The notes below the pieces were generated by a model that saw nothing but the letters and a program-made list of their open reading frames with translations, was not told where the DNA came from and made no database searches. 64,000 nucleotides of DNA from an uncultured Verrucomicrobiae bacterium (lineage in GTDB: Bacteria > Verrucomicrobiota > Verrucomicrobiia > Limisphaerales > Palsa-1400), in NCBI GenBank assembly GCA_963707025.1, contig CAVPOM010000006.1:480001-544000 (forward strand). Reading direction: 5' to 3'. The position numbers and the translations under genes are program-made. Position 1 is the first letter of the stretch. Each line of letters begins with the position of its first letter. Below are positions 21,109 to 25,003 of the stretch, piece by piece.

Positions 21109-21193
21109 GAGCGGACACCCAAGAAGTAAAGTGCGCCCCGCCAGGCGAGGCCGCGCCTGGCAGGAGGGCTGACGGTGCGGCACGTCTTTGATT

Positions 21194-22963
21194 ATGGATC
21201 CAGGAAAAGAATACCAAGAGCGGCTCGCCCAGTGGAGCCAGCGGGTGGATCGTTATGAATTGTGGCACCGGCGGACCGGGAATCTGCGGCTGCTTTTTGG
21301 CGCCGCCCTGGTGGTGGCGGCCGTGCTCCTGAGAAACACCGTCGCGGTGGGATGGCTGATTACCGGAGTCTTTGCCGGACTGTTTTTCAGCGGCATGGTG
21401 CATGACCGGATTCTGGAGAGGAGGGACACGGCGCGGCGGCTGGCGGGATTTTACACGGGTGGGCTCGACCGGCTCGGCTACCGCTGGGCGGGAAAGGGGT
21501 CCGCCGGGACGGAGTTTCTCGACAAGCAGCATCCCTACGCCGGCGATCTGGATATTTTCGGAACGGGCAGTCTTTTTGAGTTCGTCAACACCGCGCAAAC
21601 GCAGGCCGGGCGGACAAAATTGGCGGAGTGGCTGCTGCAGGGCGCGGACCAAGGCGAGATCGCGGCCCGGCAGGCGGCGGTGGCGGAAATGCGGGGGAAG
21701 GTGGACTTGCGCGAGGAATTGGCCGTGCGGGCGGGTGATCCGCAGGCGCATGTGGATACGGATGCGCTGGTGTCGTGGGCGGCCAAGCCGCCCAGCCTGA
21801 CAGGCCTGGCGGCGCGCGCCGGCGTCTTTTGTCTTCCCTTTGTCGCCTGGTCTCTTTACCTGATGGGCCAGGGTCTGCCTTGCGTGCTGGCCTTGAGCGG
21901 GCAATGCGGGCTGGCCCTGATTTACCGCCGGCGCACGGAGCGGACGCTTGGGGCGATGAAGTTGCCGGCGCGGGAGCTGCGGTGGCTGTCGGAACTGTTG
22001 GGCTGCCTGGAGGGCGAGAGTTTTCAAGAGGGCCGATTACAGGCCTTGCAGGGCAAATGGAAAGGGGACGGGGTTTGGGCGTCGGCCAGCCTGGGCCGGC
22101 TGGCCAAGCTGGTGGACTGGATGGACGCGCGCAACAATTTCGCCTTCGCAGTGATCGGCAAGTTTTTCATGCTGGGGACGCAGTTCGGCTTTGCCTTGGA
22201 GGCGTGGCGCGCGCGGCACGGGCCAGGGATGGAGGAGTGGCTGAAGGCGCTGGGTGAAATGGAGGCGCTTTCGTCGCTGGGGGGCTACGCCTTCGAGCAT
22301 CCGGCGGATGTTTTTCCGGAGCTGGCGGTCAAGTCGAATTCGCCAGTGCTCGAGGCGCAAGGGCTGGCGCATCCGCTGATCGCCGAAGCGCGCGCCGTGC
22401 GCAACGATCTGGTGCTGGAATCCAAGCAGCCCTTGCATGTCATCAGCGGCTCGAACATGTCGGGCAAGAGCACTTGGCTGCGGGCCATCGGGGCCAACCT
22501 GGTGCTGGCGCGGGCCGGGGCGCCGGTGCGGGCGCGCCGCTTTCGCATGACCGCACTGCAAATCGGCGCCTCCATTCGGAATGTGGACTCGTTGCAGGAG
22601 GGACTGTCGCGGTTTTATGCGGAGATCACCCGCCTGCGGCAGATCATGCAATTGACCGGGCAAGGCGAGGGGGTGGTTTTTCTGATTGACGAGATGTTGA
22701 GCGGAACCAACTCGCACGACCGCCGGATCGGGGCGGCCGGGATCGTCAAAGCGCTGGTGGCGCGGGGAGCGGTGGGTTTGATCACGACCCATGACCTGGC
22801 GCTGACGCAGGTGGTGGAGGAAGTCAAGCCGGCGGGCGCGAACTTTCACTTTGAGGACCAGTTGGTCAATGGCAAGCTCAGCTTCGACTACCGGTTGCAG
22901 CCCGGCGTGGTGACAAAAAGCAACGCGCTGGATTTGATGCGCTCAATCGGGCTGGAGGTTTAG
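21194..22963 (+). CDS. Membrane-anchored MutS-related ATPase (MutS domain V)
   Basis: N-terminal TM pairs; HPL, SGSNMSGKST, SRFYAEI, LIDEMLSGTNS, TTHDL. Confidence 0.85.
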   Translation: MDPGKEYQERLAQWSQRVDRYELWHRRTGNLRLLFGAALVVAAVLLRNTVAVGWLITGVFAGLFFSGMVHDRILERRDTARRLAGFYTGGLDRLGYRWAGKGSAGTEFLDKQHPYAGDLDIFGTGSLFEFVNTAQTQAGRTKLAEWLLQGADQGEIAARQAAVAEMRGKVDLREELAVRAGDPQAHVDTDALVSWAAKPPSLTGLAARAGVFCLPFVAWSLYLMGQGLPCVLALSGQCGLALIYRRRTERTLGAMKLPARELRWLSELLGCLEGESFQEGRLQALQGKWKGDGVWASASLGRLAKLVDWMDARNNFAFAVIGKFFMLGTQFGFALEAWRARHGPGMEEWLKALGEMEALSSLGGYAFEHPADVFPELAVKSNSPVLEAQGLAHPLIAEARAVRNDLVLESKQPLHVISGSNMSGKSTWLRAIGANLVLARAGAPVRARRFRMTALQIGASIRNVDSLQEGLSRFYAEITRLRQIMQLTGQGEGVVFLIDEMLSGTNSHDRRIGAAGIVKALVARGAVGLITTHDLALTQVVEEVKPAGANFHFEDQLVNGKLSFDYRLQPGVVTKSNALDLMRSIGLEV

Positions 22964-23595
22964 CGGGCCGGCGCGTCCTTTAACAGGCTTTCCGGCAGGG
23001 CCATCAATTCGGAGGCGGAGCCGTCCGGCCGCCAAAGAACGCGGCCATCGGGGAGGAGCCGGAGGATGACGCCGCGCGTCGAACCGCGAAAGGTCTTGAC
23101 GCGATCGCCCGGCTGCAAATCGGCGGAGGCGGAGAGGGATTGGACGATTTCCGCCATCGCTTCCCACGGCAGCACGCCGGCGATGTAATGGGCCACGGCC
23201 GACATGACTTCACGGCGGCGGGTGGTGGGAAGGTCGGCGAACAAGGCCGCCATGATTTGCCGGGCGACATCGGCAAAGGTGTTGCCGTTGAAAAACAGGA
23301 AAGGAGCGCGGCGATGGCACAGCCGCAGGAATTCTATGGCTTGAGCGAGCGAGCAGGCTTGCGGTCGTTTTTCTTCCCACTCTCTCTCGCACGCTTCTTG
23401 AGTCTCGCGATTAACGCCGTACTGCGCGCCTCCTCTTGAGCACGCTCCTCGATTGAGGCTGACGACAAGCTCCCAACGCCAGTTTTTGAGAAAAGCGGCT
23501 CGGGTTTGTAGCGGTGATTGTTCGCCAGGACCTCCTCGAGGATGTCCTCGTCGGTCAGATGCTCCAGCAGATCCAGTCTCAGCTTCATTGTTCAT
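22960..23595 (-). CDS. Divergent Fic/Doc-like protein with C-terminal SH3/KOW-like beta domain
   Basis: CHRRAPFLFFNGNTF resembles a degenerate HPFxDGNGR Fic loop; C-terminal LQPGDRVKT...GVILRLLPDGRVLW. Confidence 0.55.
   Translation of the reverse strand: MNNEAETGSAGASDRRGHPRGGPGEQSPLQTRAAFLKNWRWELVVSLNRGACSRGGAQYGVNRETQEACEREWEEKRPQACSLAQAIEFLRLCHRRAPFLFFNGNTFADVARQIMAALFADLPTTRRREVMSAVAHYIAGVLPWEAMAEIVQSLSASADLQPGDRVKTFRGSTRGVILRLLPDGRVLWRPDGSASELMALPESLLKDAPAR
23334..23588 (-). CDS. Small helical protein nested in an alternative frame of the Fic-like ORF (putative antitoxin)
   Basis: 84 aa with host-like codon use at the N-terminus; its ATG sits where the upstream promoter would start transcription. 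Confidence 0.6.
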   Translation of the reverse strand: MKLRLDLLEHLTDEDILEEVLANNHRYKPEPLFSKTGVGSLSSASIEERAQEEARSTALIARLKKRARESGKKNDRKPARSLKP

Positions 23596-23624
23596 AATTT
23601 AGCCCATTTTGCCGCGCAGGGCAA
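23596..23624 (-). promoter_or_regulatory. Sigma70 promoter, probably giving a leaderless mRNA
   Basis: TTGCCC-17-TAAATT, then 7 nt to ATG 23588. Confidence 0.55.
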
Positions 23625-23664
23625 TAGTGGAATGACGCCATTTGGGACAGCCCACAGTTAAAGG

Positions 23665-23991
23665 TCAATCAGGCGGGTCTTCCACGCCACGTTCCATGAT
23701 GCGCGCCACATCAAGGCGGCCATCCAATACCCTCTCAATGCTGACCCCCTGTTCATCCGGGAGATAGTAAATGAGAAAATTCGTTCTGCTGATGACCCAA
23801 AACCGCAAGGTACTGTGCCGGGTAGCCCAGCCGGGATGCGGACCCGCCAACGGATGTTGGACCAGGAACCGTGCCGCTTCCTGTGCCAACTCAAGAAATC
23901 GGTCAGCCGCGTTTGGGCCTTGCCGGACGTAAATGGAGGCGAAAATGCGCTCCAGGTCGGTCTGAGCCCGCGCACTGATCCTGGCTTTCAT
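23665..23991 (-). CDS. ParE/RelE-family toxin
   Basis: ISARAQTDLERI, AADRFL, HPLAG, FLIYY, IERVLDGRLD. Confidence 0.85.
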   Translation of the reverse strand: MKARISARAQTDLERIFASIYVRQGPNAADRFLELAQEAARFLVQHPLAGPHPGWATRHSTLRFWVISRTNFLIYYLPDEQGVSIERVLDGRLDVARIMERGVEDPPD

Positions 23992-24249
23992 CTACCCTTT
24001 TCCAATTTTGCGGGCGAGTTTCCTCCCGCGCCGGCGAATCCCCTCCCAAACCGAATCGGTCAGCGTGAAATGTTCGCTCTTTATTCCTTCGTTGATCAAG
24101 GCATCAAATTCGCCGGGATCGGAAGGTTCGTAGGCCCGCAAAATCAGCAGTTTCCCGCCCCGGGCAATGACCGTCGGATGGCCTTGCAGGGCATCGTCGG
24201 CCAATCGGCCCAGGGAACTCTTTGCTTGGCTCAGACTGCAGGTTTTCAT
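23992..24249 (-). CDS. Antitoxin (Phd/YefM-like N-terminus, ParD-like C-terminus)
   Basis: SLSQAKSSLGRLADDALQGHPTVIARGGK; stop abuts the toxin ATG. Confidence 0.75.
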   Translation of the reverse strand: MKTCSLSQAKSSLGRLADDALQGHPTVIARGGKLLILRAYEPSDPGEFDALINEGIKSEHFTLTDSVWEGIRRRGRKLARKIGKG

Positions 24250-24283
24250 TTTGCTCCAAAAATAGACTGTATTTGGACTATAG

Positions 24284-24820
24284 TCAACCTGAATTGAGGC
24301 GGGCCGCAACGCCTCCGAGCGCGCAGGCCAGTTCGGCCACGATTTCGCCGGGGGACTTGTCGCCGCCAAAAGTCAAGGCGTCCGCCGGCGGCTCGAAAAT
24401 CTCCAATTGGCTGGCCAGCAGGGACGGGGCCAGAAAATGGCCGCGCCTGGCCTGGAGCCGTTCTTCCAGCACCGGGCGCGGCGCTGTCAAGTGGACAAAC
24501 TTGACGCGGGGATCGCCGCCTTGGAGTTGATCGCGATATTTGGCCTTGAGCGCCGAACAAGTGATGACGGCGAATTGACCCGCGGCCAGCGAACGCACAA
24601 TGATTTCCCGCAAAGCGGCCAGCCATGGCGCGCGGTCGGCGTCGGTCAACGGCGCGCCACGGCGCATTTTTGCAACGCTTTCCGCTGAATGAAATTCATC
24701 TCCCTCGTAAAAAACCGCGCCGGTCGCCTTGGCGAAAAGGCCCGCCACCGTCGTTTTGCCCGAGCCGGCCACGCCCATGAAAATGAGAACCAGCGGACCC
24801 CGGATGGAGACAGGTTTCAT
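24284..24820 (-). CDS. gntK: Gluconokinase
   Basis: MGVAGSGKTT, EGDEFH, PLTDADRAPWL, CSALK..YR, GHF...LLASQ. Confidence 0.9.
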   Translation of the reverse strand: MKPVSIRGPLVLIFMGVAGSGKTTVAGLFAKATGAVFYEGDEFHSAESVAKMRRGAPLTDADRAPWLAALREIIVRSLAAGQFAVITCSALKAKYRDQLQGGDPRVKFVHLTAPRPVLEERLQARRGHFLAPSLLASQLEIFEPPADALTFGGDKSPGEIVAELACALGGVAARLNSG

Positions 24821-25003
24821 ATTCCGTCCAGCCAGACCTCGACGCAGCCGGCCCACAGTTGGCCGTGGCGGCGCAGGCCCAGGGGTGAGGAAAGGGTGAG
24901 TGTGACCGCCGCGGCCCGCCCCGCCGCCGGGAAAAGCGCTGCCAGCGCGAACAGGCAAAAAGAAAGGCGCAGCGTGTAAATCATACGACAGATGCGAACG
25001 GCA

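Follow-up and report, generated by a model that had tools for sequence, protein, structure and literature searches.

How can a gene be expressed when the promoter abutting it appears to begin transcription downstream of its start codon? This question is raised by a pair of overlapping genes on the minus strand of contig CAVPOM010000006.1 from an uncultured Verrucomicrobiae bacterium (assembly GCA_963707025.1), within a stretch of 64,000 nucleotides (nt; contig positions 480,001 to 544,000) that is referred to here as the window. The longer gene, B (23595-22960), is an open reading frame (ORF) of 211 amino acids (aa), and the shorter one, A (23588-23334), encodes a candidate antitoxin or partner of 84 aa. 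A lies wholly within B, in the +1 frame of B, and the two ATG codons are 7 nt apart. A first-pass annotation had described the nested ORFs, their 7-nt spacing and a promoter, TTGCCC-17-TAAATT, that ends directly at the ATG at 23595, and all of these coordinates proved correct when checked. The overall interpretation developed below, which we hold at even chances, is that the locus is a compact, mobile cassette resembling type II toxin-antitoxin systems, whose partner gene has come to reside inside a gene for a protein of an undescribed family with the Fido (Doc/Fic/AvrB) fold.

Both frames belong to large protein families. Searches returned 1,623 relatives of B among 2,019 candidates and 1,845 relatives of A among 1,854 candidates, the named matches in either case being hypothetical proteins of Verrucomicrobiota, and in a genome scan, among the best 79 of 240 relatives, all loci with enough sequence hold both frames in the same register. 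The Fido domain of B, in any architecture, occurs in 146 out of 351 genomes from the order (a tally that takes in the unpublished genome G709), in 72 of 401 genomes of the class and in 7 of 401 genomes of a phylum sample. Four-fold synonymous divergence was calculated for 88 loci that are intact and free of gaps. In the B frame it was 0.12 over codons 4-25, 0.08 over codons 26-45 and 0.25 over codons 46-70, compared with 0.61 outside the overlap; in the A frame it was 0.39, 0.36 and 0.28 in successive segments of codons 2-66. This dual constraint spans about 70 codons (210 nt) and leaves the last 15-18 codons of A free, and the third frame of the overlap contains stops in 77 of 77 loci. Comparison of the relatives thus shows both frames to code for what, by these measures, are selected proteins. 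That both frames read as plausible proteins had been pointed out in the first-pass annotation, and its suggestion that homologues might keep the overlap and suppress synonymous change was borne out in each frame. To judge from the separate match lists, gene callers mostly list one of the two frames per contig, which would leave the nested system invisible in annotations. Seven loci (L014, L026, L046, L058, L064, L065, L076) stand in records titled Anaerolineales, Bifidobacterium, Klebsiella or Akkermansia, and their sequences group with Verrucomicrobiota. One contig carries two nested cassettes with different A subtypes about 2.3 kb apart (L244 and L258, G677:C17).

The relatives also indicate the role of A. 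In a tandem form, a separate A' gene of about 60-70 aa lies just upstream of a 125-135 aa B' gene, often with overlapping stop and start codons, and in a fused form the A motif is joined in frame to the N-terminus of B relatives (17 protein clusters plus P0368). Nested, tandem and fused partners share the motif R[FY]xxEPxxx[KR]TGxGxLxS, which in the window reads RYKPEPLFSKTGVGSL (A residues 26-41; 23466..23513, minus strand), and the bases of this stretch also encode B residues 28-44. The 196 loci that matched B divided into 99 with a tandem and 80 with a nested arrangement, 3 fusions, 10 that have no partner and 4 that were cut, and a further 80 loci comprised 49 nested, 9 tandem, 21 partner-less and 1 cut, both sets of counts being redundant and query-dependent; one tandem locus, L327, has a KOW domain. 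The motif of A is always accompanied by B, be it in a nested gene, in a gene of its own upstream or in an N-terminal fusion, so that A is, on this comparative evidence, the partner of B. The first-pass annotation had pointed to HRRAPFLFFNGNTF in the long ORF and to SASIEE in the short one, a weak match to the inhibitory helix of Fic enzymes, and both strings are present as it described. As a functional analogue of that helix SASIEE was rejected, since [S/T]xxxE[G/N] is absent from all 122 nested partners and present in only 1 of the 94 tandem ones; the conserved motif is not SASIEE but the one given above. A was likewise rejected as a Phd antitoxin defined by an N-terminal Phd/YefM domain: it has no match in Pfam at E-values up to 1 and none in Atlas, and no DNA-binding domain was recognized in it.

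The model of B (predicted local distance difference test score, pLDDT, 75.8) comprises a disordered N-terminal extension (residues 1-27; 1-23 are disordered in the model), a helical, Doc-like Fido domain (about 28-156) and a KOW/SH3-like beta-barrel (157-208; 22972..23127). The barrel matches KOW/Tudor domains with a best Z of 8.5, and in structure searches with full-length B the KOW domain filled the match list. Residues 34-156 matched Doc (3dd7; residues 1-123) with a Z of 7.0 and a root-mean-square deviation of 3.6 over 115 residues. For P0357, a natural fusion that lacks the KOW domain (pLDDT 84.0), rows 1-23 of 50 were Fic, Doc or AvrB at Z 7.7-5.4, and the first row after this block fell to Z 4.7. 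Foldseek also ranked Fic at rows 1-11 for the P0357 model, but with E-values of 0.13-0.49, and found no match for either model at E-values up to 0.001. In an Atlas search the cluster at rank 10 (score 0.91) carries PF02661 on 45% of its members. Several observations weigh against a Fido assignment: the structural Z values are middling for a helical protein; a B profile compared with 10 Doc proteins reached a probability of 0.2%, which is not significant, in a local alignment that sets Ala on His and Thr-Phe on Lys-Arg; and neither A nor B matched a family in Pfam, NCBIfam, PADLOC, PHROGs or PDB sequences. Given the middling Z values, Foldseek E-values of at least 0.13 and the non-significant profile comparison, it is the agreement among the structural matches that carries the assignment, and by them B is predicted to have a Fido fold in an incomplete form of Doc size. 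A scan of positions 22000-25000 against Rfam gave no match.

At the place of the Fido signature motif, the canonical form of which is described in PMC2686095, the loop of B (23275..23316) runs from H94 through A97 to F107 and reads HxxAPFxFxNGNTF. His precedes PF in none of 108 partner-bearing cores: the catalytic-His position is occupied by Ala in 96, Ser in 9, Gly in 2 and Asn in 1, and the motif Arg is missing. The residues W41, N48, C52, W73, H94, N103, G104, N105, T106, F107, R112 and H136 are 95-100% conserved in these cores. We therefore rejected B as a canonical Fic enzyme (HPFx[D/E]GN[G/K]R), the catalytic His and Arg being absent and a Pfam Fic match lacking, and as a member of the Doc family TIGR01550 (kinase motif HxFxD[A/G]NKR), which it matches neither in NCBIfam nor in the motif. 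Thus, where B had been called Fic-like, the structure matches uphold a Fic/Doc-type fold, and the reading as a canonical Fic enzyme falls. The window's genome contains, in addition, a canonical gene of the Doc family, with the motif HPFVDGNKR (L365, G000:C18). Elsewhere in the family, P0375 has the Fido domain fused behind a GntR-type winged helix, and the open B' frames of L206, L208 and L220 extend about 260-390 aa from the domain start, so that some have long C-terminal extensions.

How A might act on B is suggested by the fusion model of P0357: the Doc match (70-191) does not reach the A-like helix (residues 9-34), and the matches to complete Fic proteins include it. Phd is described as replacing helices that Doc lacks (PMC2686095), and, to judge only from the aligned ranges of the fusion model, in which residues 35-60 have a pLDDT of about 55, the A helix may complete the Fido fold of B in the same manner. 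The state of B in relatives bears on the nature of the pair. H94 and NGN are intact in 105 of 108 partner-bearing cores and in 8 of 27 orphans, an association whose p-value of 4e-14 is overstated because the orphans come from few clades, and p-values are overstated throughout this analysis since loci are related to one another. Breakage affects B at 18 of the 121 nested loci that could be scored and A at 2 of 122. Motif decay upon loss of the partner, together with more frequent breakage of B than of A, is the pattern that a harmful active protein and its inhibitor would be expected to leave. The locus further shows the layout of a type II toxin-antitoxin system, with a small linked partner gene that is favored by a leaderless promoter, and the occurrence of nested, tandem and fused forms adds to the resemblance to a toxin-antitoxin module seen in the first-pass annotation. 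From these comparisons A and B are probably antitoxin and toxin, respectively. The partner-less loci L086, L172, L183, L189, L190, L194, L197 and L198 and L273 and L275-L279 make up two groups; one has proteins of 150-170 aa that keep NNGNTF and have often lost H94, and in the other, which bears KOW domains, the NGN motif has decayed. Both could be domesticated pseudo-enzymes.

The same architecture and start sites could also serve a dead or non-toxic Fido protein that forms a regulatory or sensing complex with A. Without the catalytic His and Arg of Fic and Doc, B may be no enzyme or no toxin, which weighs against the toxin reading; position 97 is never His in the partner-bearing cores, no family matches B, A lacks both the FicA motif and a recognized DNA-binding domain, and the full motif persists in eight of the 27 orphans, which have no partner. 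Against a harmless B stand the decay of the motif with partner loss, the excess of broken B genes over broken A genes, and the order of a small leaderless gene followed by a coupled Doc-size gene, which is the Phd/Doc layout. Moreover, AvrB and EcFicT are Fido proteins with divergent motifs, so that another chemistry is possible (PMC10866546, PMC5033356); the substrate of EcFicT is described as unknown in PMC5033356. We consider it unlikely that B is inactive or non-toxic.

If A and B are toxin-antitoxin partners, the position of the cassette promoter would bear directly on their ratio. Its -35 hexamer, TTGCCC, lies at 23624-23619 and its -10 hexamer, TAAATT, at 23601-23596, and the start codon of B (23593..23595) falls within the discriminator. 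A simple consensus scan missed this promoter, and with a genome-trained matrix it was the best-scoring site (14.4). Across loci, the sole conserved upstream signal relative to the ATG of A consists of AA at -45/-44, TTG at -36, TAnnnT at -13 to -8, ATG at -7, a pyrimidine at -2 and a purine at -1. TTG is present in 119, a -10 element of the form [TC]AnnnT in 114 and the purine at -1 in 121 of 124 loci, a set that here and below takes in two misfiled tandem loci (L173 and L176), and between -120 and -47 no sequence is conserved across loci. In the window's genome the gap between promoter and ATG peaks at 6 nt (187 sites versus 28-56 at gaps of 0-5), as leaderless geometry entails, and in E. coli start sites favor the seventh base after the -10 element and rarely lie more than 1 bp upstream of it (PMC5730371). 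From the seventh base after the -10 hexamer and the pyrimidine-purine step, transcription is predicted to start at 23588..23589, 0-1 nt 5' of the ATG of A. The cassette would thus have a sigma-70 promoter starting at about 23589 and producing a leaderless mRNA that can make only A, in agreement with the first-pass proposal that the transcript begins near the ATG at 23588 and excludes that of B. Tandem relatives have the same TTG-17-TAnnnT promoter type, with a leaderless A', in 31 of 39 cases. The window's genome (G000) has many leaderless-type sigma-70 promoters and shows no Shine-Dalgarno signal at 1,202 long ORFs, though its 16S tail has CCUCC. No unusual RNA structure was found at the starts (z of 0.31, -0.47 and -0.06).

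The first-pass annotation had concluded that B has no accessible start codon. This holds for the transcript predicted from the cassette promoter, and it is also true that no other in-frame ATG, GTG or TTG precedes the Fic-like loop, the next in B being codon 115, beyond the loop. It does not hold for B as such, whose start codon is kept by selection. In 122 loci, obtained from 168 nested loci by removing redundancy at 97% identity, a B-frame start lies within the discriminator in 115 (ATG at -7 in 108, ATG at -4 in 6 and GTG at -7 in 1), and B is broken in 4 of the 7 loci without such a start versus 14 of 114 with one (p=0.009). Among leaderless-type promoters of the window's genome, ATG directly follows the -10 element in only 3 of 132, in 1 of 73 (the present locus) and in none of 54. 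The frame is also held open from the start. At 589 sites in B codons 4-25 where a synonymous T would create a stop in B, such a T was seen 4 times against 72.6 expected from the dicodon usage of the window's genome, while at 1,190 harmless sites T was seen 195 times against 237.5 expected (n=124). Loci with a stop in codons 4-25 likewise number 4 against 57 expected (n=124), and avoidance is already evident at codon 8 (0 seen, 13.9 expected) and codon 11 (1 versus 15.1). The position of the ATG itself is explained by the first triplet of the -10 box, which is read in the B frame and forms a stop codon at 33 of 74 promoters; at this locus the TAA of TAAATT is in frame with B, and no B start is possible further upstream.

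Taken together, the comparisons make it highly probable that both proteins are made and that B starts at 23595. A few loci speak against this. At three that belong to a single genus (L304, L305, L307), B is intact and lacks a B-frame start; L016, L083 and L229 have a stop in codons 4-25 and an apparently whole remainder of B; and at L242 (the same locus as L302) the ATG of A is lost (ACG) and the ATG and frame of B are kept. There is, furthermore, no Shine-Dalgarno signal specific to the ATG of B. Anti-Shine-Dalgarno pairing upstream of B (-3.65) equals that of tandem promoters (-3.69) and of its own shuffles (-3.79), and an initial p-value of 0.003 in favor of a Shine-Dalgarno site for B, which was then discarded, vanished against these controls.

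The first-pass annotation had offered three routes to B, namely a -1 frameshift, a non-canonical start and read-through from upstream. As general routes the first two find no support, because the frame is kept open from the upstream ATG and that ATG is conserved. A narrower version of the first would have B made from the transcript of A by a -1 shift within the first codons, through slippage of the ribosome or RNA polymerase on AAA, with the upstream ATG in a secondary role. It accommodates the facts that the only conserved promoter excludes the ATG of B, that the three start-less loci keep B whole and all have ATG AAA, and that divergent contexts keep B; codons 4-25 would likewise stay open if the shift came very early. 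It leaves unexplained why ATG stands at -7 in 108 of 122 loci, why it moves in frame to -4 in six and why it is lost mainly in broken copies. Avoidance of stops from codon 8 onward would confine any shift to the first five codons of A, a stretch that contains no slippery heptamer and whose second codon is AAG at 21 of 124 loci, among them the one in this window. Since codons 4-25 of B are kept open and its ATG is conserved, a -1 frameshift further downstream is unlikely. The three exceptions, moreover, look mosaic: L304, L305, L307 and L320, the last of which has ATG at -4, are alike in promoter and C-terminal KOW sequence and very different in the middle of the cassette, a pattern that suggests recent allele exchange, with an early slip possible at the first three. 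Slippage as the source of B thus appears improbable.

We regard as slightly more improbable still a single transcript that begins upstream of both ATGs, through another sigma factor or at an unrecognized promoter, and whose ribosomes are split between the two starts, the sigma-70 match being idle. Such a transcript would fit the six loci with starts 4 nt apart (ATGxATG), which is the spacing of Thermus rnpA/rpmH, and a self-contained promoter would explain the presence of the cassette in many unrelated contexts. However, the region from -120 to -47 is not conserved, a -10 element displaced to where it would render B leaderless is seen at 1 of 108 loci and at 1 of 97 in the control, the tandem relatives share the leaderless promoter type, and the window's genome lacks a Shine-Dalgarno signal. 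The notion that one frame is a mere shadow of the other, although the conservation of each protein is partly forced by the other and A residues 43-57 have no counterpart in tandem partners, has next to no probability and is already refuted by the tandem and fused forms, in which both families occur as separate, non-overlapping genes or as one chain, as well as by the suppression of synonymous change in both frames and the stops in the third.

With B starting at 23595 and the cassette promoter starting beyond that codon, read-through from upstream is the best of the three proposed routes, and there is a good chance that B depends on longer upstream transcripts. Context genes, called with a home-made gene caller, include 81 distinct upstream genes, unrelated and mostly housekeeping, and the cassette moves together with its promoter. 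No relative was found on viral contigs (searched with a single pattern) or plasmids. In 56 of 80 distinct contexts the gene upstream runs in the same orientation, ending within 60 nt in 21 of the 56, compared with 90 of 199 leaderless genes of the window's genome (p=2e-4) and 17 of 34 tandem forms (p=0.055). In the window, a ParE-like operon lies upstream and no terminator was found on the minus strand between the ParE-like gene and B, making this operon a possible source of read-through in that genome. The first-pass annotation had linked the operon to the nested genes more closely, and it is no part of the system: the upstream genes are mostly unrelated, and in a same-genus genome the cassette, with a truncated B, stands directly behind a gluconokinase-like gene without the Phd-ParE pair. 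The pair, which is absent at this site in G666 and located elsewhere in G974, is a local insertion.

Several findings weigh against the dependence on upstream transcripts. The upstream gene is divergent in 24 of 80 contexts, where scores for a second promoter are no higher than in controls (p=0.45 and 0.38) and where B is not more often broken (4 of 30 versus 9 of 68), and no second promoter at a fixed distance is conserved across loci overall. In favor of that dependence, all 6 loci of one lineage with a divergent context retain a second element, TTG-N20-TAyGA, some 80 nt upstream. The nested locus L072 of the cultured Chthoniobacter flavus Ellin428 also stands in a divergent context. Terminator counts by context (1 of 55, 3 of 43 and 1 of 16) were uninformative.

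The mechanism that we propose is that the short leaderless mRNA of the cassette promoter would make A only, whereas B would be made only from longer transcripts entering from upstream, by operon read-through or from weak upstream promoters, so that A would be kept in excess and the 5' end of the transcript would decide which protein is produced. A would bind B, its first helix taking the place that Phd fills on Doc, and would block an active site formed by H94, N103-G104-N105, R112 and H136, whose chemistry would not be canonical AMPylation. As a guess from its fold, the KOW domain would most likely dock B on a nucleic acid or on a ribosomal or RNA polymerase target. More tentatively, and with somewhat less than even confidence, we put forward the locus as an entangled toxin-antitoxin gene: a collapsed two-gene operon in which the binding motif of A and the first helices of B share bases and the 5' end picks the product, the active site of the Fido enzyme would be a new one (H94, NGN, H136), and the cassette would act as a sensor for the transcription of whichever operon it follows.

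The nested form was likely derived from the tandem form, because the latter is the usual Phd/Doc layout and is more varied, because in 12 of 25 tandem loci A' occupies the +1 frame relative to B', and because a tandem form with a KOW domain exists; this locus, L327, has a nested-like A' motif. Through a deletion that keeps the phase, the A motif would come to lie on the first helix of B, and B would have to use the first ATG upstream. In two quick unrooted trees of dereplicated rows, 30 of which are proteins without known context, nested and deep KOW forms split from tandem, fused and orphan forms with support of 99-100. An A-like [ST]GxG occurs in the +1 frame of only 3 of 25 tandem B' genes. 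The reverse, a nested ancestor that was duplicated and divided, is the alternative.

Compared with known systems, the pair may be said to work like Phd/Doc or FicT/FicA, to be built like rnpA/rpmH and perhaps to be regulated like VirF30/VirF21. As in Phd/Doc of phage P1, the helical domain matches a whole Doc chain (3dd7), tandem relatives have a small upstream partner, and the A-like helix falls outside the Doc match and inside full Fic matches, as expected for Phd-like completion (PMC2686095); unlike Doc, B lacks HxFxD[A/G]NKR and TIGR01550 and has a KOW domain, A is not Phd-like, and the genes are nested. With FicT/FicA (VbhT/VbhA, EcFicT/EcFicA) the pair shares the predicted Fido fold and a partner that is separate or N-terminally fused, and differs in that B has no catalytic His or Arg and A no [S/T]xxxE[G/N]. 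Fic proteins are classed by whether their inhibitor is separate or fused. EcFicT itself is described as having a divergent Fic motif (PMC5033356). In rnpA/rpmH of Thermus thermophilus, as here, a short gene is nested on the same strand and the long gene starts 4 nt (here 4 or 7) upstream, with a filler N-terminal extension (PMC9841429). There, however, one Shine-Dalgarno site on one mRNA serves both starts, whereas here there is no such signal and the promoter falls between the starts; the products here are probably toxin and inhibitor, and the catalytic domain itself is dual-coded. As in the model proposed here, an internal promoter in Shigella VirF30/VirF21 yields a leaderless mRNA, whose 5' end lies 1-2 nt ahead of the ATG, for a short product that negatively regulates the long one (PMC5101355). 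The two VirF products are in the same frame, whereas A and B are in different frames and are unrelated proteins. Overlapping frames whose products act as one complex are known from lambda Rz/Rz1 and mammalian XLalphas/ALEX. These serve phage lysis or eukaryotic signaling, not toxin-antitoxin function, and a complex of A and B is a prediction.

In the literature searched, which covered few subscription journals and no supplements, we found no description of the A/B family or of a same-strand antitoxin nested in its toxin. PMC11230408 names comS and rpmH as the only two characterized same-strand nested bacterial pairs before 2019, and PMC9841429 calls rnpA/rpmH the only described dual start site. 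A and B show full nesting, neighboring starts and selection on both frames, and they represent a widespread nested pair with more than a thousand sequence clusters. Since tandem, tandem with KOW, fused and orphan versions persist, how two proteins come to share sequence can be studied in both directions. The family also marks a branch of Fido proteins whose motif and partner are undescribed, and it suggests promoter position as a testable means of setting the toxin:antitoxin ratio.

The local Phd-ParE pair consists, on the minus strand, of a Phd/YefM-like gene (24249-23992), which has a weak Pfam match (E-value 3e-4), and a ParE-like gene (23991-23665), preceded by a promoter of their own, TTGACT-17-TATTTT (24287-24259); the pairing of a Phd-like with a ParE-like gene is unusual. 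On the other side, a gene for a 591-aa protein with a MutS_V domain (21188-22963, plus strand) is convergent on B, and the stop codons of the two genes overlap by 4 nt.

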